From: Escherichia phage EK99P-1
Length of the DNA: 44,332 nt
Direction: 5' to 3' (one strand)
Sequence record: NC_024783.1
Made by a program: the position numbers and the translations under genes. Below the pieces are notes generated by a model, which was not told the DNA's origin, ran no database searches, and was given only the letters and a program-made list of their open reading frames with translations. This document shows, piece by piece, positions 629-42,776 of this stretch (position 1 is the stretch's first letter; every line of letters begins with the position of its first letter).

Positions 629-2013
629 TGCGTAACTATGCTGCAGAACACCGCGCACTGGAACGCGCGATCGCGAAGCGCAACCGACCACCGCGCCCGA
701 CACGCGTTGCGCAGGCGGTGCGGCTTTACCAGCCTGATTGCCTACCGCACCAGGTCGAACTACTGCGGGACACGAAGACTAAAATCCTCGGCCTGTGTTC
801 CGGCTTCGGCGGCGGCAAGTCATGGGTCGCAGCCCGTAAGGTAATCCAGCTTTTAACCCTGAACCCGGGTCATGATGGCATCGTTACAGAACCGACTATT
901 CCCCTCCTGGTTAAAATCATGTATCCAGAATTGGAGAAGGCTTTCGACGAGGCTGGCTTCCGGTGGAAGTTCAACAAGCAGGACAAGATCTATAGCGTTC
1001 TGGTGAAAGGCAAATGGACCCGCGTGATCTGTGAATCAATGGAGAACTATACCCGTCTGATCGGGGTCAACGCCGCGTGGATTGTTGCCGACGAGTTCGA
1101 CACCACGAAGCAAGACGTCGCAATGGCGGCTTATCACAAATTGCTCGGTCGTCTGCGTGCGGGCGTGGTCCGTCAGTTTGTCATCGTATCCACGCCGGAA
1201 GGCTTCCGGGCAATGTATCAAATTTTCGAGGTGGAGAAGGATAGCCAGAAACGTTTGATCCGGGCGAAGACCACCGACAACCACCATTTACCGGCAGACT
1301 TTATCGACACGCTGCGCAGTCAGTACCCGGCGAACCTTATTGACGCGTACCTGAACGGCCTGTTTGTTAACCTTACGTCGGGCGCGGTGTACAAGATGTT
1401 TAATCGCGAGGAGAACGCCAGCACCGAAGAAGTACAACCGGAAGACACGCTGATTATCGGTATGGACTTTAACGTCACGAAAATGGCGGCGGTCGTGTAT
1501 GTAAGACGGCAGCGTACCACCGAGAACAAGGAGTTCCGCGACGAGATTCACGCCGTGGATGAATTCGTGGACCTGTTTGATACCCCGGCTATGATTGAAG
1601 CGATCGAGGAGCGCTACCCCGATCATTGCGCTGCCGGTAAGGTCGTCGTGTACCCGGATAGCAGTGGCAAGTCGCGTAAGACGGTCAACGCGTCGTCGTC
1701 CGATATAGCGCAACTGGAAGACGCAGGCTTCGAGGTGGAATACGACAGCGTTAACCCACCGGTGAAAGACCGATTGATCGCGATGAATACGATGATGTGC
1801 AACTCGAAGGGCGTGCGCCAGTATTTTGTCAACCTGGATAAATGCCCTACACTAGCGAAATGTCTGGAACAGCAGGTTTACGACCTGAAGAAAGGCGAGC
1901 CGGATAAAACCGCCGGTGTGGACCACATGAACGATGCCGCGGGTTATCCAATTGCGCACCTGTTCCCAGTGATTCGCCCAATCGCCGTTGTTCCAACTGT
2001 AGACTTCTACTAA
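628..2013 (+). CDS. terminase large subunit (ATPase and nuclease)
   Basis: 461 aa; Walker A-like GFGGGKS and Walker B-like VADEFD; size and position between terS and portal. Confidence 0.85.
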   Translation: MRNYAAEHRALERAIAKRNRPPRPTRVAQAVRLYQPDCLPHQVELLRDTKTKILGLCSGFGGGKSWVAARKVIQLLTLNPGHDGIVTEPTIPLLVKIMYPELEKAFDEAGFRWKFNKQDKIYSVLVKGKWTRVICESMENYTRLIGVNAAWIVADEFDTTKQDVAMAAYHKLLGRLRAGVVRQFVIVSTPEGFRAMYQIFEVEKDSQKRLIRAKTTDNHHLPADFIDTLRSQYPANLIDAYLNGLFVNLTSGAVYKMFNREENASTEEVQPEDTLIIGMDFNVTKMAAVVYVRRQRTTENKEFRDEIHAVDEFVDLFDTPAMIEAIEERYPDHCAAGKVVVYPDSSGKSRKTVNASSSDIAQLEDAGFEVEYDSVNPPVKDRLIAMNTMMCNSKGVRQYFVNLDKCPTLAKCLEQQVYDLKKGEPDKTAGVDHMNDAAGYPIAHLFPVIRPIAVVPTVDFY

Positions 2014-2023
2014 GGAAACGACC

Positions 2024-3544
2024 ATGACCGTTAACGTTGACAACCAGCACCCGCTCTATGCGCGCATCGCGCCAGAGTGGAAAATGATCCGTGATTGTGT
2101 GGCAGGGGAGCGCGCCGTGAAGGCGTGCGGCCCCTTGTACCTGCCTCATCCCGCCAGTGGCGACAACACTGACCCGAAAGCACGGGCGAGATATAAGGCG
2201 TATAAGCAACGCGCTGTATTCCTGAACGCCACCGCCCGCACACTTAACGCACTGTTAGGCGTTGCCTTCGCTAAACCGGTAAGTCTGGACCTTTCCGGGG
2301 CGATTGCGGACCTTATTGACGACGTAGACGGCAGTGGTATGCCGCTGCCGCAACTCCTGCGCGGTGCTATGTCGGAAGTGCTGCAATCAGGCCGTGCGGG
2401 CTTTATGGTGGACTACGATCGCCAGGCGCATTTTGATGAGCTGGGTAACGTAGTGCCGCAGACAGCCGCTGAGATGGCGTCACACCGCCCACTTATCCGC
2501 CTGTACACGGCAGAACAGATCATCAACTGGCGGCAGACCCACGGCGTAGATACGCTAATTGTGCTAAAGGAAACGGACGAAATCAGCACCGAAGACCCGG
2601 ACGACTTCGCAAACCACGAAGTAACAATATGGACCGAGCTTCGCATGATTAACGGTGCGGCACACGCCCGCCGCTGGTTTTATAACGCGGACACGTCCGA
2701 GGTGCAAATGGACTTGCCGCGTGGATTCACCCGCACCGACCTGGTGCCGCTGGTGGATGCCTCCGGTAAGGCACTGACTCAACTTCCGTTTTGCTGGTGT
2801 GGCGCGGTGGACAACAACGCGACGCCAGACGCCGCTCCGCTGGCAGATATCGCATCCATCAACATTAAGCACTACAACGCCGAAGCGGACGTCGCCGAGA
2901 TCGCGCACATCGTGGGCCAACCTACCCTGGTTGCGACGGGCTTGACTCAATCATGGGCGGACAAAAACCTGAAAGGCGGCATCGCGCTCGGAGCGACTAA
3001 GGGCGTTATTCTCGGTCAGAACATGGATGCTAAACTGATCCAGGCCGAGGAGCGCAACTTGTCTGTTGCACTGTGTGAGCGACGCGAATTGCAAATGGCT
3101 AAACTGGGCGCGGCCCTGGTTGAGAAGGGGACTGCACCTAAGACGGCAACCGAGGCGGCCTACGATGCGCAGACTGATAACAGTATCCTGTCGCTTATTG
3201 CCAGTAACGTTGAGAAGGCTTTCAACCGTGCGCTGCAAATCGTGCAGCTATTCACGGGGGACACCGCAGATCAACGTGTAACGCTGAATAAGTTCTACAC
3301 CGAGATCACGGTTGATGCACAGCTTATGACCGCGATGATGGCGGGTGTGCAGACGGGTACGGTCCGCCTGGCGGACTTCATCAAGTGGATGATGGCGCAG
3401 GGCGTCATCGACGACTCGCAAACCGTCGAGCAGGTTGAAGACGAATTGCGAAATCAGAATCCATTGCCTCAAATGTCCCCGGATGCGGTAGAATCTACCG
3501 AAGAAGACCCGGACAAGGTAGCGGACAATGGCGAAGACAATTAA
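2024..3544 (+). CDS. portal protein
   Basis: 506 aa, immediately downstream of terL, acidic C-terminus, RBS AAGGA before ATG. Confidence 0.8.
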   Translation: MTVNVDNQHPLYARIAPEWKMIRDCVAGERAVKACGPLYLPHPASGDNTDPKARARYKAYKQRAVFLNATARTLNALLGVAFAKPVSLDLSGAIADLIDDVDGSGMPLPQLLRGAMSEVLQSGRAGFMVDYDRQAHFDELGNVVPQTAAEMASHRPLIRLYTAEQIINWRQTHGVDTLIVLKETDEISTEDPDDFANHEVTIWTELRMINGAAHARRWFYNADTSEVQMDLPRGFTRTDLVPLVDASGKALTQLPFCWCGAVDNNATPDAAPLADIASINIKHYNAEADVAEIAHIVGQPTLVATGLTQSWADKNLKGGIALGATKGVILGQNMDAKLIQAEERNLSVALCERRELQMAKLGAALVEKGTAPKTATEAAYDAQTDNSILSLIASNVEKAFNRALQIVQLFTGDTADQRVTLNKFYTEITVDAQLMTAMMAGVQTGTVRLADFIKWMMAQGVIDDSQTVEQVEDELRNQNPLPQMSPDAVESTEEDPDKVADNGEDN

Positions 3545-4631
3545 TCAATATATGGCGGATCGAATGATTCGCCGACACATCTTCACCCAGCGCCTGAGTA
3601 ATGACCAGGCGCGGCGGGTGCTGGCTATGTGGGAGAAGTTCCGGCCCACGTTACTGGGTAAGCTGACCGAGTTACTTGATGGCAAAAAGTCCATGAACAA
3701 CAAGGCACTTACCACTCTGTTAACGCAACTCGACAAGACCGTCAAAACGGAACTGCGCACCGAGTTTAAGGCGTTGGCTGAAAGCCTTCAGGAGTTCGCC
3801 GACACCGAGGCCGATTATCTCGCCGACACATTAACGGCAGCGATCCAGCCGGTGGTCGCCGTACCTGCGGTCGAGGTGGTTGGCGTAGTGACCGGTGCTC
3901 AGATCGCAGCTACTGCAATGAAAAACCCGTTCCAGGGTAACACCATGATGCAGTGGCCCGATTCACTTTCCGAGTGGACCAGGACGCAGATCGGCAATCA
4001 GGTGCGCGCCGGATTCATCCAGGGCAAGCCGACGATGGAAATTATCGCGGATGTGAGGCGCACGCTAGGCGGTCGTAGTGCGCAAGCAATCTCAAGCGTT
4101 GTTAAGTCCGCGGTCAACCACTATGCGGCGACCGCCCGCGAATTAATGGTAAAAGCTAATGACGATATTCTCGAAGGTCGCCAATGGTTGGCTACATTGG
4201 ACACTCATACTTCCCCAATGTGCCAGCTACGCGATCGCCTGTTTTATCCTGTTGACGTCACTCCCGACACCAAAGGCAAGCGCGGCGGGAAAGTGGTGGC
4301 GGGATCACAATATGGCGCTGGACCGGGCAAGCTGCATTATTGCTGCCGTTCGACGGAGACGTGGAAAGTTAAGGGCATGGAAGATTGGCCCAGTGGTAAG
4401 CGTCCGGCACTGAAGCCTGACGCGGGCCGATTGCTGAGTGAGCAGGTCGACGCGCGGACTGATTTCTTCTCATGGGTGCAGCGCCAGCCGCGCCATATCC
4501 TGGAGGAATTATATGGAGTGCAACGCGCCGACCAGATTATGCGCGGCGTGAAAGTGCCGAAGATGTTTACCGATTCTGGCGAACTGATGACTATTGCACA
4601 GCTTAAAAACCGGGGGCTATGGCGTGATTAA
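3528..4631 (+). CDS. head morphogenesis protein (Mu F-like / SPP1 gp7-like minor head protein)
   Basis: 367 aa, overlaps the portal stop, conserved position after portal. Confidence 0.65.
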   Translation: MAKTINQYMADRMIRRHIFTQRLSNDQARRVLAMWEKFRPTLLGKLTELLDGKKSMNNKALTTLLTQLDKTVKTELRTEFKALAESLQEFADTEADYLADTLTAAIQPVVAVPAVEVVGVVTGAQIAATAMKNPFQGNTMMQWPDSLSEWTRTQIGNQVRAGFIQGKPTMEIIADVRRTLGGRSAQAISSVVKSAVNHYAATARELMVKANDDILEGRQWLATLDTHTSPMCQLRDRLFYPVDVTPDTKGKRGGKVVAGSQYGAGPGKLHYCCRSTETWKVKGMEDWPSGKRPALKPDAGRLLSEQVDARTDFFSWVQRQPRHILEELYGVQRADQIMRGVKVPKMFTDSGELMTIAQLKNRGLWRD

Positions 4632-4953
4632 GTATGCAGCTATTGGACTGGTTATAGGTCTGGCGGTAGGATTCTGGCTAGGTGACTCCTATCGCGCTGG
4701 CGTAGTGGCGGAGGCGGCGCAAGAAGCGCAAGCCAAAGCCCAACGGCAGCAAACTAAAGTTGTTGAGCGATCCGTGCAGGCCGAACAAGCCCGCGACGTA
4801 GAATACCGGACTATCACGAAAGAGGTTGTGAAATATGTTACGCGTCCTAACCGTCCTGATTGCAGTTTTGATGCTGAGCGCGTGCGGATCAAGCAGCGTG
4901 CCGTTGATGCCGCTAACGGAGTCGGCACTGCGACCGCCGTGCAAGTTCGATAA
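4624..4953 (+). CDS. Rz-like inner-membrane spanin (i-spanin)
   Basis: GTG start with GGGGG RBS. N-terminal TM helix (IKYAAIGLVIGLAVGFWLG), then a Q/A/E-rich helical periplasmic region. Partner lipoprotein ORF embedded in the +1 frame. Confidence 0.7.
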   Translation: MIKYAAIGLVIGLAVGFWLGDSYRAGVVAEAAQEAQAKAQRQQTKVVERSVQAEQARDVEYRTITKEVVKYVTRPNRPDCSFDAERVRIKQRAVDAANGVGTATAVQVR

Positions 4954-5065
4954 CCCGTCCGCGGACCCCGACGAAGATTTGATGATTGACGTGAAAAATA
5001 TGGAATGCGGGGCGAAGCTGAGGGCGCAGGTCCTGGAGTTGCAGCAGATAATTCGGGGGCCGTAA
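4835..5065 (+). CDS. Rz1-like outer-membrane lipoprotein spanin (o-spanin)
   Basis: Starts inside Rz in another frame and extends past the Rz stop. Signal peptide plus lipobox MLRVLTVLIAVLMLSAC, short Pro-containing mature part, RBS AGAGG. Confidence 0.7.
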   Translation: MLRVLTVLIAVLMLSACGSSSVPLMPLTESALRPPCKFDNPSADPDEDLMIDVKNMECGAKLRAQVLELQQIIRGP

Positions 5066-5080
5066 TGGCCCCCTTTTATT
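5055..5080 (+). terminator. rho-independent terminator after Rz1
   Basis: GGGGGCC-gtaat-GGCCCCC hairpin followed by TTTTATT, between convergent genes. Confidence 0.6.
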
Positions 5081-5843
5081 AGCGCGGAATACCGCAGATT
5101 TCGTTTAACGTCTTCACGTCCAGTGCCACCGCCGTGGACTTCGGCTTGTCCGGGTATGGAATAAACTGTTCCACTTCAGGCCACGCCTTGATCAGCTTCT
5201 TATCGGTATTGTGCATATCCAGCACGCCGGTCACAGTCAGCTTGAATGCGTCATACTTCGCACGCAACTCGCGGCGGGCCTTGTCGTTACGGTCCAGGCG
5301 CTTGCAGAAATCATGGTCCGCCGGGTAGTCTATACGACCGCATGACTTATATATCGGCAGCGCTTTCCCATCCTCGTCCACTTCGCACACAGAAGCCAGC
5401 ATTACTTCTTCGTACCCTGGTACAATATCGCCGAGATCTGGAGATAGCGTATTCATGTATTTATATTCCCAGTATCCGCGATGTACTCGGTATTGTCGTC
5501 CGTCACCGCTCAATGACAGTGTGCGCACATTTCCGCCCGCGTTGATTTCGAAAGTGGCGTCGTAAACGCTGCCGATGCCTTTTGGGCGGTCAGCATTATA
5601 TCTATACGTCGCCTTGTTGGTGTATACGCTTACTCCGTACATCTGCGACGGGTCATCGCCGATTGCTTTAATGCGCGCGAGTAGCTCGGCGAAAGTGCGA
5701 ATGCCTTCCGGCATACAGTCCAGCGTAATGGCGTACGCCAGGTCGCGCGAGTCCATCATGATGGATTTGGCTTCGGTCGCGATTTCATGGTCGCGCAGGA
5801 TGTTAGCCAGAATCTGGTTTTTAATGTCTTTCGTCAGTCTCAT
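5079..5843 (-). CDS. hypothetical protein (minus-strand moron in head module)
   Basis: 254 aa from the ATG at 5843 (RBS AAAGAGGA). Opposite strand to all flanking structural genes. No family recognised by eye. Confidence 0.6.
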   Translation of the reverse strand: MRLTKDIKNQILANILRDHEIATEAKSIMMDSRDLAYAITLDCMPEGIRTFAELLARIKAIGDDPSQMYGVSVYTNKATYRYNADRPKGIGSVYDATFEINAGGNVRTLSLSGDGRQYRVHRGYWEYKYMNTLSPDLGDIVPGYEEVMLASVCEVDEDGKALPIYKSCGRIDYPADHDFCKRLDRNDKARRELRAKYDAFKLTVTGVLDMHNTDKKLIKAWPEVEQFIPYPDKPKSTAVALDVKTLNEICGIPR

Positions 5844-5857
5844 TTGTGTGTCCTCTT

Positions 5858-6019
5858 TTAGTGGTTGTATAATTCGCCGCGTGCGTCGGCATCTTCCATT
5901 TGGTGTAGTGCGTGTTTCTGGTCCTGGCAAGGAATCCAGCGTTCCTCTAATTTATGCCAGAAGTAAAACACCCCGTTATCCAGCTTAATCTCGGCAATAC
6001 CGTTATTGAAAGTTAGCAT
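5858..6019 (-). CDS. hypothetical small protein (first gene of moron)
   Basis: 53 aa from the internal ATG at 6019 with RBS GAGGG, immediately downstream of a promoter-like element. Confidence 0.45.
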   Translation of the reverse strand: MLTFNNGIAEIKLDNGVFYFWHKLEERWIPCQDQKHALHQMEDADARGELYNH

Positions 6020-6036
6020 TTTGTTACCCTCATTTG

Positions 6037-6078
6037 TTGGTATGCAACCAATATACTGCAACCAATCCACCAATGCAA
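6037..6078 (-). promoter_or_regulatory. sigma70-like promoter for the moron, with downstream palindrome
   Basis: Minus strand: -35 TTGCAT (6073-6078), 17-nt spacer, -10 TATATT (6050-6055), then TTGGT-tgcat-ACCAA (6037-6051). Contains two ATTGGTTGCA boxes. Confidence 0.45.
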
Positions 6079-6168
6079 GCAAATTTTGCGATTATTTTTA
6101 TCGCTGATAATATTAGAAGCGTGAAGTCGAGCGGGTGGCCTGCTCTGCCACAATCCCAGGGGGATAGC

Positions 6169-6873
6169 ATGAAACTTACTAAAGCAGAATATGACGCGTT
6201 GCCGGAAGGTATGAAGGCGCTTTTTGTTGCCGATGGCGACGGGTATAAATCAACGTTCATGACCGCAGAAGAAGTACAGGCGGAAATCAAGGGTCTGAAA
6301 GACAACAACGCTAAGCTGGTGAGCGAGAAGAAAGCAGAAGCTGAACGCCGCGCCGAAGCTGAGCGCCTTGCGAAAGAGAAAGAGGAAGCCGCCGCGCGCA
6401 AAAATGGCGACCTCGAAGCGATCGACAAGTCCTGGAAAGATAAGTTTGCGAAACACGAAGCAGACACATCGGGAAAAATCGAAGCCTACCGCAAGCAGAT
6501 CCACGATCTAACCATCGGCAGCGCTGCCAAAGACCTGGCGTCGAAGCTGTTCGGTAAGAATGCGGGCATCATGCAACGCCACGTAATGGACCGCCTGACG
6601 CTGGAAGACGGCGAAGACGGCAGCTTGAAAGTGCGAGTCTTGCAGGATGGCAAACCGTCCGCGCTGACTATGGAAGAGCTGGAAAAAGAGTTCCGTAATA
6701 ACGCCGATTTTGCATCCGTCCTGGCTGGCACGCCAGCCGGTGGCGCGCCTAGCAAACCGACGCAGGTTGTCGAAGATGTGAAGTCGAAAATCACTATGGG
6801 CCACAGCTTCGGTATCACTGACCTTACGAAACAGGCAGGTGAAATCATCGCTAAGATGGGCGACGACGAGTAA
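6169..6873 (+). CDS. scaffolding protein
   Basis: 234 aa from the ATG at 6169 (RBS GGGGGA). Charged coiled-coil stretch (EAERRAEAERLAKEKEEAAARK), directly upstream of the capsid gene. Confidence 0.65.
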   Translation: MKLTKAEYDALPEGMKALFVADGDGYKSTFMTAEEVQAEIKGLKDNNAKLVSEKKAEAERRAEAERLAKEKEEAAARKNGDLEAIDKSWKDKFAKHEADTSGKIEAYRKQIHDLTIGSAAKDLASKLFGKNAGIMQRHVMDRLTLEDGEDGSLKVRVLQDGKPSALTMEELEKEFRNNADFASVLAGTPAGGAPSKPTQVVEDVKSKITMGHSFGITDLTKQAGEIIAKMGDDE

Positions 6874-24935: not shown

Positions 24936-24965
24936 ACTATAGTGCAACCAACCTATTGGTTGCAA
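24936..24965 (-). promoter_or_regulatory. putative promoter with palindromic box pair
   Basis: Minus strand: TTGCAA (-35), 18-nt spacer, TATAGT (-10). The perfect inverted repeat TGCAACCAA-cct-a-TTGGTTGCA spans the -35 and spacer. Confidence 0.45.
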
Positions 24966-25423
24966 GTGAATTTCGCAACATTTATCGCGTAAATTTTCGG
25001 GACCAAATCACCACACGCCCGACGAATTGCCGCGATGTTCTTCTCGCAATCTTCAATGATGACCAGTTCCGACACGTCCGCATAGCAGACCATTTTGAAC
25101 ACGGCGCACGCCTTAAACTCAGGCGGCGGGGTGTCGTCCAGCATGTGGCGCATAAACAACCGGCCTACCGGGAAGACCTCCAATTGCTCGGCGGTGGTGT
25201 CCCAGCATTCGCGCTGCCGGTTGGTCAGATACGCGATCTCGAAGCCTTGCTCTTTATACATGCGCAGTAGCGGCAGCATATCCATGTTCAGGTCTTCGCG
25301 GACGTGCGCCTTGTGCCACTTCGCCCAGAAGGTGGATTTAGTTTTTATGCCCGGCACCAGGTCGGCGCGCGCATCGCTTGACCCATTAATAACGCCATCC
25401 AGATCACAAATCAGTAATTTCAT
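24953..25423 (-). CDS. HAD-superfamily phosphatase / nucleotidase-like protein
   Basis: 156 aa. N-terminal LICDLDGV matches HAD motif I (DxDG). Confidence 0.6.
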   Translation of the reverse strand: MKLLICDLDGVINGSSDARADLVPGIKTKSTFWAKWHKAHVREDLNMDMLPLLRMYKEQGFEIAYLTNRQRECWDTTAEQLEVFPVGRLFMRHMLDDTPPPEFKACAVFKMVCYADVSELVIIEDCEKNIAAIRRACGDLVPKIYAINVAKFTCNQ

Positions 25424-25653
25424 TTCAATTCCTCAATAAGGGTGTATCGGGCGCTGCGCGCGGTGTAAGAGTTGCACACGAAATGACAACGTCGGGTAAT
25501 GACAAGCCACCCGGTAAGGTCCATACCCAGGAGGTGTTCAGGCCGTGACACGCGACGCACACGATCGCGGCGCGGGTCAATGTTATAGTCTTTTTGCATT
25601 TGGTCTACGACCGCGTGGTCGCGGTCAACGATTAAGATATTCATGTAGCTCAC
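25420..25653 (-). CDS. hypothetical protein
   Basis: 77 aa, overlapping junctions with both neighbours. Confidence 0.4.
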   Translation of the reverse strand: MSYMNILIVDRDHAVVDQMQKDYNIDPRRDRVRRVSRPEHLLGMDLTGWLVITRRCHFVCNSYTARSARYTLIEELK

Positions 25654-26110
25654 TCTCGCTCATTATTTCAATTTGTGCGCTGCCGCTGGGCGGCGCTTCG
25701 TCAAAGATTATCAACTGCTGGCACTTGTTATTGCTCGGCCCGACTTCACCGGTTACAGCGTGTATAAATCGGATACGCCAGTCCAGAAGAATTATCAGGT
25801 TTGCAGTCTTCCGGGCCAGCTTTGCCCACTTCGTCGACGTGTCCTGATTCAGCAGCATGACGGTCCGGCGTCCGTGCGCTGCGCACTTGACCCACGGCAG
25901 CGGATCGGAATACGGCGGGTTGCACCACTTCCACCCTTTCAACTCAGACCAGTCCGCATCGAGCGCGCTGTGCTCTGCCGTGAAGTAACGCGGTAGCAGG
26001 TGGTTGGTGTCGCTTGCCGCCATATCGTAACGGAATCGGTACTTACGGCGCAGCGGTTTAAATAAAGCTGGCGGCGTGCGCCAGCTATCTTTTTGCTCAC
26101 TCTTCTGCAT
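25625..26110 (-). CDS. DNA N6-adenine methyltransferase (small phage Dam type)
   Basis: 161 aa with WRTPPALF and catalytic NPPY motifs. Confidence 0.8.
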   Translation of the reverse strand: MQKSEQKDSWRTPPALFKPLRRKYRFRYDMAASDTNHLLPRYFTAEHSALDADWSELKGWKWCNPPYSDPLPWVKCAAHGRRTVMLLNQDTSTKWAKLARKTANLIILLDWRIRFIHAVTGEVGPSNNKCQQLIIFDEAPPSGSAQIEIMSESELHEYLNR

Positions 26111-26844: not shown

Positions 26845-26878
26845 AATATAATGCAACCAATATAATTACGCAACCAAT
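26845..26878 (-). promoter_or_regulatory. putative sigma70-like promoter with two boxes
   Basis: Minus strand: ATTGGTTGCGT (-35 TTGCGT), 17-nt spacer containing a second ATTGGTTGCA, -10 TATATT. Confidence 0.45.
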
Positions 26879-29801: not shown

Positions 29802-29835
29802 ACTATACCGCTATGCGACCAATTCAGCAACCAAT
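29802..29835 (-). promoter_or_regulatory. putative sigma70-like promoter with two boxes
   Basis: Minus strand: ATTGGTTGCTG (-35 TTGCTG), 17-nt spacer containing ATTGGTCGCA, -10 TATAGT. Confidence 0.4.
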
Positions 29836-39071: not shown

Positions 39072-39165
39072 ATTTTGCGCGCATTGGTTGCCATTTTGGG
39101 TGTTTTTATCTGGTCGTATTGGTTGCCGTGTAGTGTAGATATAATGAATAGTTATGCAATAAAAC

Positions 39166-39334
39166 TGCATAAACCAAACGGGACAGAAAGCGGGACAAAC
39201 AAGGGGCGGGACAAAGCGGGACAGCACCCCCGTCCCGCCCCGGATGGCGCGGCCTGGAGAGGAGCGGGACAGCGGGACAGCACCCCAGTCTTTCAGACTA
39301 GACGGGGGTCAGCGGCCCCCCTCGTCTGAGACTG
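39166..39334 (+). repeat. GCGGGACA iteron plus long hairpin element (copy B)
   Basis: 169 bp directly after the primase gene. Both flanks near-identical to 11788-11956, 34-bp central core divergent, one loop substitution in the hairpin. Confidence 0.8.
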
Positions 39335-39493
39335 CATAAAATCCGGGATTGCAAAATACACGGCAGCATGTTGCGGATTGCGGTCGTCGCTGAACTAGGC
39401 AACCAATGCGAGATGCGGAATGGTGGGTGGAAAATGCAGTTTGCAGTCACAGCAGATAGCGATCAACTTTTTCATGCGCGTGATTAATATTGG

Positions 39494-39535
39494 TTGCATT
39501 CAATCCGGCACCCGGCTATATTGGTTGCACACCAA
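39494..39535 (+). promoter_or_regulatory. sigma70-like promoter with downstream palindrome
   Basis: ATTGGTTGCAT (-35 TTGCAT, 39494-39499), 17-nt spacer, TATATT (39517-39522), then TTGGT-tgcac-ACCAA (39521-39535) and RBS GAGGA. Confidence 0.5.
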
Positions 39536-41778: not shown

Positions 41779-42020
41779 TTATCTCCGTCCTGTTGTTTGT
41801 TATCATAGGGGCTTCGTCCCTGTTTAACGTGTATGCGCCGTCCGTCCAGGATGGCTTCTTCGGTCGGGTGTTATATCTGCTAACGGCAATGACCTGTATT
41901 GTCGGTCTGTTGCAAACAGGAGACGTATCTGACACCACCTGGACCGCGTTAATCTGGTTGTTTGCATTGCGCACGCTGCGTAATGCTGTTTTGAATGGGG
42001 TAAAACATGCGATTCAGTGA
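41775..42020 (+). CDS. second holin / antiholin-like membrane protein
   Basis: 81 aa with two to three TM helices, overlaps both neighbours. Confidence 0.45.
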   Translation: MIISVLLFVIIGASSLFNVYAPSVQDGFFGRVLYLLTAMTCIVGLLQTGDVSDTTWTALIWLFALRTLRNAVLNGVKHAIQ

Positions 42021-42498
42021 CAACGGTCTACGATTTACGGCAGCATGGGAGACTTTCATCCCGGTGCCGTATTTCGCGACCAAGAAAGAGCAGGCCCGCG
42101 GCCTGTACACCTGGGGCTATGGTCATACTGGCACTAATCCGCCTCGAAGCATTACCCGTGCGGAAGCGCTGGAACTGCTCAAGCGTGATGTGGCGTATGC
42201 CGAGGACTGGGTGAACAAATACGCGCATAAGAGCATTAACCAGGCGCAATTCGACGCGCTGGTGGACCTGGTAATCAACGCTGGCCCTGGTCCGATCGTA
42301 CCGGATGACGTCGCGAATGATTTCGATGATGCGGTGCGGTTGGGCGACTGGGCGAAGGTCCGTGCTACGCTGCCGCTATTCCGCAAGCAAGGCGGGGAAG
42401 TGCTTAAGGGTCTTGTGCGCCGTGCAATCGGCAGACAGGCGTTATTTGATGGTAAGCAGTGGGACGTTGCCGAGCGAATCGGTCGTAACGCAGCATAA
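42007..42498 (+). CDS. endolysin, lysozyme (GH24-like)
   Basis: 163 aa. SDNGLRF...WGYGHTG matches the catalytic region pattern of P22/lambda-type lysozymes. Confidence 0.8.
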   Translation: MRFSDNGLRFTAAWETFIPVPYFATKKEQARGLYTWGYGHTGTNPPRSITRAEALELLKRDVAYAEDWVNKYAHKSINQAQFDALVDLVINAGPGPIVPDDVANDFDDAVRLGDWAKVRATLPLFRKQGGEVLKGLVRRAIGRQALFDGKQWDVAERIGRNAA

Positions 42499-42714: not shown

Positions 42715-42776
42715 TTGCTTTACTTGCAACCAACTATCAGACTATACTGCGACCAATCAACGAGAGGAGTAATACT

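Follow-up and report, generated by a model that had tools for sequence, protein, structure and literature searches.

What is the function of two leftward genes that lie among the rightward head genes of Escherichia phage EK99P-1, and do they form a single acquired unit? EK99P-1 is a virulent coliphage belonging to the genus Dhillonvirus and has been used experimentally against enterotoxigenic E. coli. The window analyzed was the whole stretch of 44,332 nucleotides (NC_024783.1), and the features of the locus are listed in Table 1. The two genes, here called nmad5 and orf53, had been described in the initial annotation as a two-gene moron inserted between the spanin and scaffold genes and carrying proteins of no recognizable family.

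Both open reading frames were present as claimed, each with an ATG start codon and a Shine-Dalgarno sequence. In the mechanical ORF list both frames begin further upstream, at TTG codons, giving 283 and 74 aa; the same two CDSs are annotated in the GenBank record of the sister phage Dru_SM5, with starts that agree with the ATGs at 5843 and 6019. The AT skew, positive in the neighbouring plus-strand genes, fell below zero over 5000-6000, which agrees with coding on the minus strand. A search with the region 4600-6200 returned matches in 156 phage records, almost all from Dhillonvirus (HK578-like virulent coliphages), the closest being P-GXEC-L2P5 (94%) and Dru_SM5 (91.6%, colinear across the whole query). 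The proposal of a unit antisense to the head genes was borne out, and this unit is non-structural and has candidate signals of its own. We regard this anatomy of the locus as solid.

Table 1. Coordinates of the features of the leftward unit and its surroundings in the EK99P-1 genome.
Feature	Position	Strand	Details
Hairpin between convergent Rz1 (+) and nmad5 (-)	5055..5073	.	GC-rich; dG -17.8 (+) and -17.1 (-) kcal/mol
nmad5 (EK99P-1_0007)	5079..5843	-	254 aa, ATG start; Pfam PF18757, phrog_1965; AF2 pLDDT 90
Shine-Dalgarno of nmad5	5851..5855	-	GAGGA, from sequence; inside the 14-nt gap after the orf53 stop codon
Variable cassette slot	5858..6036	-	Between the promoter leader and the nmad5 RBS; holds orf53 and its own RBS GAGGG
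orf53 (EK99P-1_0008, "hypothetical protein")	5858..6019	-	53-aa orphan, ATG start; predicted beta-beta-beta-alpha fold
Shine-Dalgarno of orf53	6031-6027	-	GAGGG; spacing to the ATG 7 nt
Two direct copies of TGCAACCAAT	6043-6052, 6057-6066	.	Overlap the -10/+1 and the spacer of the leftward promoter; invariant in five phages
Candidate leftward sigma-70 promoter (orf53-nmad5)	6050..6078	-	TTGCAT (6078-6073), 17-nt spacer, TATATT (6055-6050); relaxed scan 8/12
Candidate rightward promoter (scaffold and capsid genes)	6086..6113	+	TTGCGA, 16-nt spacer, TGaTAATAT (extended -10); relaxed scan 8/12

The divergent control region measures 149 bp and precedes the scaffold ATG at 6169. A standard sigma-70 scan of the intergenic segment 6020-6168 returned no promoter, and one candidate in each direction was recovered by a relaxed scan. 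The interval between nmad5 and the scaffold gene was aligned in five phages (EK99P-1, Dru_SM5, KS_S9, SM_S22 and PTXU06); both candidate promoters fall in sequence conserved across all five, and the pattern GTTGGTRTGCAACCAATATA(N)TGCAACCAAT ... TTTTGCGATTATTTTTATCGCTGATAATATT was present in 5/5. On the minus strand the two copies of TGCAACCAAT read ATTGGTTGCA. A promoter with an operator palindrome had been proposed at 6037-6078. This description holds in part: a repeated element and a relaxed-scan promoter do occur there, but the standard scan gave no promoter and the element is mainly a direct repeat, the inverted-repeat finder not having reported the palindrome. A short near-palindrome, TTGGTATGCAACCAA, was noted at 6037-6051.

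When one mismatch was allowed, TGCAACCAAT matched 18 times in the genome versus 2.8 expected, a count reached by none of the shuffled sequences. The remaining 16 matches all lie within 22-43 kb and are often paired. The TTGCA core of ATTGGTTGCA occupies the -35 position in at least six sigma-70-like promoters, whose sites were anchored on the -10 hexamers, and the leftward promoter shares the 20-nt sequence TATATTGGTTGCAYACCAAC with a promoter at 39517. Motif-bearing promoters were found ahead of replication genes (SNF2 helicase and the Dam operon) and ahead of genes upstream of or beside the lysozyme gene. We considered the motif as a marker of early genes and rejected it, as it also precedes genes of the lysis region; since it stands ahead of both groups, it marks a family of phage promoters and assigns no temporal class. 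The shared motif makes some co-regulation of the leftward unit with the replication genes plausible, and the additional motif copies that cover the -10 and +1 of this unit's promoter may act as an operator.

At the other end of the unit, the hairpin said to be shared with Rz1 is real and is placed between the stop codons of Rz1 (5065) and nmad5 (5079). PTXU06 has a terminator annotated at this site. A proper T-run follows the hairpin on the plus strand only (TTTTATT), the minus strand offering the weak U-run GAAUUAUCU, so that the terminase-to-Rz1 unit has a good terminator in this structure and the leftward unit a weak one at best.

The view that neither protein could be placed in a known family did not hold for the 254-aa product, which carries a full-length Nmad5 domain (Pfam PF18757, E 1.1e-57, 195.8 bits against a gathering cutoff of 27, profile positions 1-206 of 206 aligned to residues 1-253) and also matches phrog_1965; it did hold for the 53-aa protein, which gave no family match. 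With such a Pfam match, a chance origin of the 254-aa reading frame can be dismissed. Compared with the 206-position Pfam model, the EK99P-1 protein has about 48 additional residues. In a tblastn search, about 145-148 of the 156 Dhillonvirus records (~95%) contained the complete nmad5, and matches to the C-terminal 80 residues alone came from Pseudomonas YuA/M6-like, Bordetella, Vibrio and Stx-converting phages. An exhaustive search of 1.84 billion representative proteins returned only 101 Nmad5 clusters. Among seven Dhillonviruses the gene showed purifying selection, with dN/dS of 0.05-0.18 at dS up to 0.65, indicating that it is maintained by selection. Its GC content (52.7%) is typical for the genome. 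A natural truncation of nmad5 occurs in phage Teewinot.

An alignment of 86 homologues showed that L217, W221 and N247 are invariant and that P222, E223 and L246 are conserved in at least 90%; all six residues are present in the EK99P-1 protein. The family signature, with the consensus TxKKLxExWPE, corresponds to residues 213-223 (TDKKLIKAWPE), L246 and N247 being conserved as well. The AlphaFold model of Nmad5 (pLDDT 90, pTM 0.83) has three helices at its N-terminus, a beta region in the centre and a long helix spanning 178-209, and the signature is carried on short helices. Foldseek against BFVD retrieved A0A8S5STG2 (E 1e-28, TM 0.79) and seven more family members or uncharacterized phage proteins at E <=1e-5, and these were the only kinds of match; neither a solved fold nor a PDB sequence was matched. 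As modelled, the Nmad5 fold is unlike any solved structure. PADLOC, NCBIfam and PDB sequence searches gave no match for Nmad5 or orf53.

The five-phage alignment was used to compare the segment between the promoter leader and the nmad5 ribosome binding site, and this segment turned out to be a variable slot. It is empty in KS_S9 and SM_S22, in which the nmad5 RBS directly abuts the control region, and in EK99P-1 and Dru_SM5 it holds a 177-bp insert (about 5858-6036) with orf53. PTXU06, together with Zar3M, HK578 and SM_W22, carries an unrelated gene of 135 aa, with homologues of 52-56% identity in Serratia and Erwinia phages. A third gene, annotated as 122 aa and matching phrog_24635 (E 2e-71), occupies the slot in JLBYU60, ZCEC10 and ~60 other records; its annotated start falls within the promoter. 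A 27-residue N-terminus shared by the 122-aa and 135-aa proteins was discarded, being the translated shared promoter region that results from an over-long start call. Ksap1, the trigger of KpAvs2, was ruled out as a slot occupant, its gene being located between the phosphatase and Dam genes. Neither Nmad5 nor orf53 nor the 135-aa protein of the alternative cassette matched a PADLOC-DB HMM at E up to 1.

The orf53 cassette is the rarest of these alleles, being found in 2 of 50,697 phage records in addition to EK99P-1, i.e., in three phages in all. Among 5.8 billion proteins, the orf53 product formed two clusters, and all copies were 100% identical. DNA identity between EK99P-1 and Dru_SM5 was 99.4% in the cassette, compared with 86.1% in nmad5, 95.3% in the Rz genes and 97.7% in the control region. 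The GC content of orf53 is 45.7% against 54.5% for the genome, and a local GC dip is visible. Slot polymorphism, near-identical DNA on a diverged backbone and low GC together point to recent horizontal transfer of the orf53 cassette.

These results contradict the picture of a two-gene moron, since nmad5 is a conserved gene of the genus that stands directly behind the same promoter in the sister phages with an empty slot, and only orf53 is insert-like. Variable presence at one site among close genomes was observed for orf53 and not for nmad5, and orf53 also has the deviant base composition typical of morons. The cassette shares these properties, as well as near-identical DNA on diverged backbones and alternative genes at the same site, with the morons and accessory hot spots of tailed phages. 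Unlike lambda-like morons, it brings neither a promoter nor a terminator: it uses the resident nmad5 promoter, located upstream of it, and the 14-nt gap before nmad5 contains no terminator. The nmad5 gene itself falls outside the moron definition. As EK99P-1 is virulent, the cassette has no role in lysogenic conversion.

The coding evidence for orf53 is moderate. Searches of Pfam, PHROG, PADLOC and NCBIfam found no family for its product. A single-sequence AF2 prediction returned a compact beta-beta-beta-alpha fold with a pLDDT of 71, for which Foldseek found no match below E 0.8; a likeness to the N-terminal domain of lambda Int (TM 0.56-0.59) was dismissed as not significant. The 177-bp insert could instead be a non-coding leader or regulatory RNA segment in which the reading frame is fortuitous. 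The lack of homologues beyond identical copies, of family and significant fold matches and of substitutions with which selection might be measured is in keeping with this explanation, which we nevertheless judge improbable, as the ATG is preceded, at a distance of 7 nt, by a good Shine-Dalgarno sequence (GAGGG), the frame takes up 91% of the insert and stops 14 nt short of the nmad5 ATG, and an ATG ORF of at least 53 codons arose in only ~1% of shuffles of the cassette. The compact predicted fold and the clear protein genes found in the same slot of sister phages (phrog_24635 and the 135-aa gene) argue in the same direction. Taken as a gene, orf53 most likely encodes a strain-specific host-interaction or counter-defence protein, a class suggested by the kind of locus in which it lies.

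Genetic evidence on nmad5 is available from orthologues that are 91-95% identical to the EK99P-1 protein, to which all the toxicity and Tmn data discussed here refer. On E. coli expressing Tmn, the escape mutants of two Dhillonviruses shared one nmad5 substitution, reported as K216E in SM_A8 and "K296E" in SM_S22 (PMC11846954). Reversion of K216E brought Tmn sensitivity back, and the engineered K216E led to escape (Yamashita et al. 2025, Commun Biol, PMC11846954). A phage deleted for nmad5 was viable, yet still sensitive to Tmn, and wild-type nmad5 could not be cloned in E. coli, apparently owing to its toxicity (PMC11846954). The guess that the locus encodes a toxic, non-structural function in host interaction or defence was therefore supported for nmad5 by published orthologue genetics, namely by its dispensability, its apparent toxicity and the Tmn escape mutation.

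In both SM_S22 and SM_A8, nmad5 has the same position as in EK99P-1, between Rz1 and the scaffold gene, and K216 and the sequence TDKKLIKAWPE are shared. The EK99P-1 protein is 91.4% identical to its SM_S22 orthologue over 254 aa; the two loci differ in the slot upstream of nmad5, which is empty in SM_S22 and holds the additional 53-aa gene between promoter and nmad5 in EK99P-1. We found that the 334-aa CDS of SM_S22 was called too long: residues 1-80 are the antisense translation of the control region and of the start of the scaffold gene. As these residues are an annotation artefact, "K296" is K216, and the published numbering is corrected here. EK99P-1 carries the wild-type residue (HNTDK-K-LIKAWPE), which is located inside the most conserved motif of the family (TxKKLxxxWPE) and beside the invariant L217.

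Tmn is a membrane P-loop NTPase that is activated by the phage protein RIIB in T2 (PMC13001434, 2026 preprint), which favours sensing at the protein level. T2 RIIB and Nmad5 can be likened by genetics, not by protein comparison, in that Tmn defence is abolished in both cases when one residue is changed in a phage protein that is early and non-structural. However, loss-of-function (nonsense) mutants of T2 RIIB escape Tmn, whereas the nmad5 deletion does not, and Nmad5 is thus not a simple trigger. Escape by K216E and not by deletion suggests that Nmad5 modulates the triggering of Tmn without being its sole trigger.

The apparent toxicity of Nmad5 orthologues, which made them uncloneable (PMC11846954), and the tight coupling of the two genes across a 14-nt gap might also be reconciled with a toxin-antidote pair, in which orf53 would temper a toxic Nmad5. 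We consider this very unlikely, as in most Dhillonviruses nmad5 stands behind an empty slot or an unrelated upstream gene and hence does not need orf53.

The authors of the escape study proposed a different explanation (PMC11846954), according to which Nmad5 would be a DNA-modification enzyme or an obligatory cofactor that marks phage DNA, with the modification being sensed by Tmn. This reading draws on the family name and on the placement of the gene inside the thymidine hypermodification cluster of M6-like phages; in SN1 and M6-like phages, the Nmad5 gene abuts the genes for aGPT-Pplase1, 5-hmdU kinase, rSAM and PLP proteins (PMC9476957). Nmad5 also contains a conserved ADH motif and basic residues, and the ADH and KK residues could be catalytic. 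M6 and YuA-like Pseudomonas phages and Sphaerotilus SN1 have the same PF18757 domain, with 37-40% identity to EK99P-1 Nmad5 over the C-terminal 80 residues. Modification genes adjoin Nmad5 in the thymidine-hypermodifying phages, whereas in EK99P-1 a Pfam scan of the 19 large non-structural ORFs (20.9-44.3 kb) detected none of the partner enzymes, i.e., no 5-hmdU kinase, aGPT-Pplase, hydroxymethylase or TET/JBP protein. The sole modification-type gene among those 19 ORFs encodes a Dam methyltransferase (25625-26110).

Several further lines of evidence stand against a modification role. The orthologue deletion leaves Tmn sensitivity intact (PMC11846954), and the Tmn trigger identified in T2 is a protein, RIIB, not DNA chemistry (PMC13001434). 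The 5-NedU pathway of M6 was reconstituted with gp51-54 alone, without Nmad5 (PMC8989533), and in BASEL phenotyping Dhillonviruses were RM-sensitive compared with the base-modified Queuovirinae (PMC8594841). By sequence and fold searches Nmad5 resembles no enzyme fold, and many of its homologues occur in phages that lack modification clusters. In the publications consulted, no experimental activity was described for any member of the family. The name Nmad5 rests on gene neighbourhood, and nothing supports an enzyme role for the EK99P-1 protein, although its predicted structure could represent a novel enzyme fold. On balance, we assign a low likelihood to the modification reading.

The genomic contexts of Nmad5 homologues are varied. 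In the lambdoid phages HK542c102 and PhiR12_2_star and in Stx phages, the Nmad5 gene (Pfam E 1e-71) directly follows N in the pL operon, a region rich in host-takeover and anti-defence genes. As in EK99P-1, these homologues have the full-length domain and are encoded by an accessory gene just behind a promoter; they differ in being 207 aa long and in belonging to the pL operon of temperate phages, whereas the EK99P-1 gene is part of an antisense unit in the head module of a virulent phage. Other homologues lie in early, replication or recombination operons beside DUF2800/PD-(D/E)XK exonuclease, Enc34-type SSB and Dam genes, one is directly ahead of holin and lysozyme genes, and in other phages they form antisense islands within packaging modules. 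This distribution of contexts is more in line with an accessory gene of the conflict type than with an enzyme of a pathway.

The same contexts bear on the idea that both proteins are head-assembly or structural accessory factors, which could be suggested by their position within the head module, between MuF-like, spanin and scaffold genes, and by the divergent control region common to the scaffold gene and the leftward unit. We find this barely credible. The genes are on the opposite strand with signals of their own, the orthologue of nmad5 can be deleted with plaque formation kept (PMC11846954), and the gene is naturally truncated in Teewinot. Moreover, homologues of Nmad5 belong to early or replication operons of unrelated phages, sequence and fold searches found no homology to structural proteins, and orf53 is missing from almost all sister phages.

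Taken together, the data are best described by a small leftward accessory operon in which the genus-conserved, non-structural nmad5 is joined to a recently acquired orf53 cassette, between two rightward structural units. We estimate the probability of this reading at about 60%. In the model that we propose, transcription would start from a sub-consensus sigma-70 promoter within the divergent control region shared with the scaffold gene. The leftward transcript would carry orf53 followed by nmad5, whose RBS lies in the short gap between the two, and would be ended or attenuated at the hairpin shared with Rz1. Nmad5 would be an early-type accessory factor acting by binding on host or replication-associated processes and is not a demonstrated DNA-modifying enzyme. 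The orf53 cassette would have arrived recently by horizontal transfer, at a hot spot close to the promoter.

For the most part, the locus reflects known biology or is ordinary, the remainder being the biochemical role of Nmad5, the Tmn genetics of missense versus deletion and the orphan cassette. A bolder interpretation, which we put forward tentatively and hold to be rather unlikely, is that the slot serves Dhillonvirus as a hot spot in which counter-defence cassettes can replace one another, that orf53 encodes a small new protein acting in anti-defence or host interaction, and that Nmad5 is a non-enzymatic early protein with a new fold, whose KKLxxxWPE surface controls the firing of membrane NTPase defences such as Tmn. 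If this hot-spot and non-enzymatic interpretation were true, the family name Nmad5 would be a misnomer outside the M6-like phages.

As regards the family, we argue that the label "DNA modification enzyme" is unsupported outside one clade. The polymorphic slot, with its four states, is a handy natural site in which accessory genes can be found or engineered. Finally, EK99P-1 carries K216, the Tmn-sensitive allele in its sister phages, and a one-codon edit might therefore widen its host range.

Comparison of EK99P-1 with Dru_SM5, a sister phage, showed that nmad5, which encodes the 254-aa Nmad5 protein, shared 86% nucleotide identity with a dS of 0.58. Both flanks were far less diverged, with 95% identity in the Rz genes and 98% in the control region, a disparity that suggests mosaic recombination at the nmad5 locus. 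In another Dhillonvirus, Teewinot (41.8 kb), nmad5 has been reduced by natural deletion to codons 1-62, as would be expected if the gene is dispensable. The P-GXEC-L2P5 record (PQ843332.1), one of the best matches to the region, comprises 88,607 bases and gave three matches to the query region; it is probably an assembly in which a genome of about 44 kb has been concatenated or duplicated.

Nmad5 genes were also found as small opposite-strand islands within the packaging/head modules of two unrelated metagenomic phages, placed either between the portal and terminase genes or in convergent orientation to MuF and portal, and in both phages a small gene lay upstream. This opposite-strand arrangement is common to EK99P-1 and these phages.

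Start-site miscalls were seen in two Dhillonvirus records. The published 334-aa Nmad5 CDS of SM_S22 overlaps the opposite-strand scaffold CDS and its residues 1-80 are the control region translated antisense, so that the reported K296E substitution corresponds to K216E in the true 254-aa protein. Similarly, JLBYU60 gp08, annotated as 122 aa, has its start within the promoter (ATGTTGGTTGCATTATATTGGTTGCA), and the phrog_24635 alignment to it begins only at residue 14. A 27-residue match between gp08 and the HK578 135-aa protein was rejected as spurious, being a product of this over-long start.

Coordinates of features in EK99P-1 and in other phage loci
Phage	Coordinates	Strand	Feature	Location
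EK99P-1	5079-5843	-	nmad5	
EK99P-1	4594-5065		embedded Rz/Rz1-type spanin pair	head module
EK99P-1	42007-42498		lysozyme gene	
EK99P-1	25420-25653	-	74-77-aa ORF	between HAD-phosphatase-like gene (24953-25423) and Dam (25625-26110)
EK99P-1	22153, 24943-24964, 26852-26878, 29814-29835, 36267, 39083-39529, 40038, 42725-42757		motif copies	elsewhere in the window
Teewinot (L014, NC_073053)	2001-2174		reduced nmad5	
SM_S22 (L004, PP627283)	2006-3010		334-aa Nmad5 CDS	
JLBYU60 (L006)	1586-1954		gp08	
Metagenomic phage (L019)	2145-2729		Nmad5 gene	packaging/head module
Metagenomic phage (L013)	720-1445		Nmad5 gene	packaging/head module

The spanin pair lies about 37 kb away from the lysozyme gene. 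It ends at a strong terminator, the only one for the plus strand in this region, which thus divides the head genes into two transcription units. As a separate observation, the 74-77-aa ORF corresponds in position to Ksap1, with which Dhillonviruses trigger KpAvs2 (PMC11564622).

Finally, the motif TGCAACCAAT / ATTGGTTGCA was over-represented in the window (18 matches versus 2.8 expected). Its TTGCA core lies at the -35 position in several sigma-70-like promoters, and two copies at 24943-24964 constitute an inverted pair flanked by convergent genes. The motif looks like a family of Dhillonvirus promoters or regulator sites.
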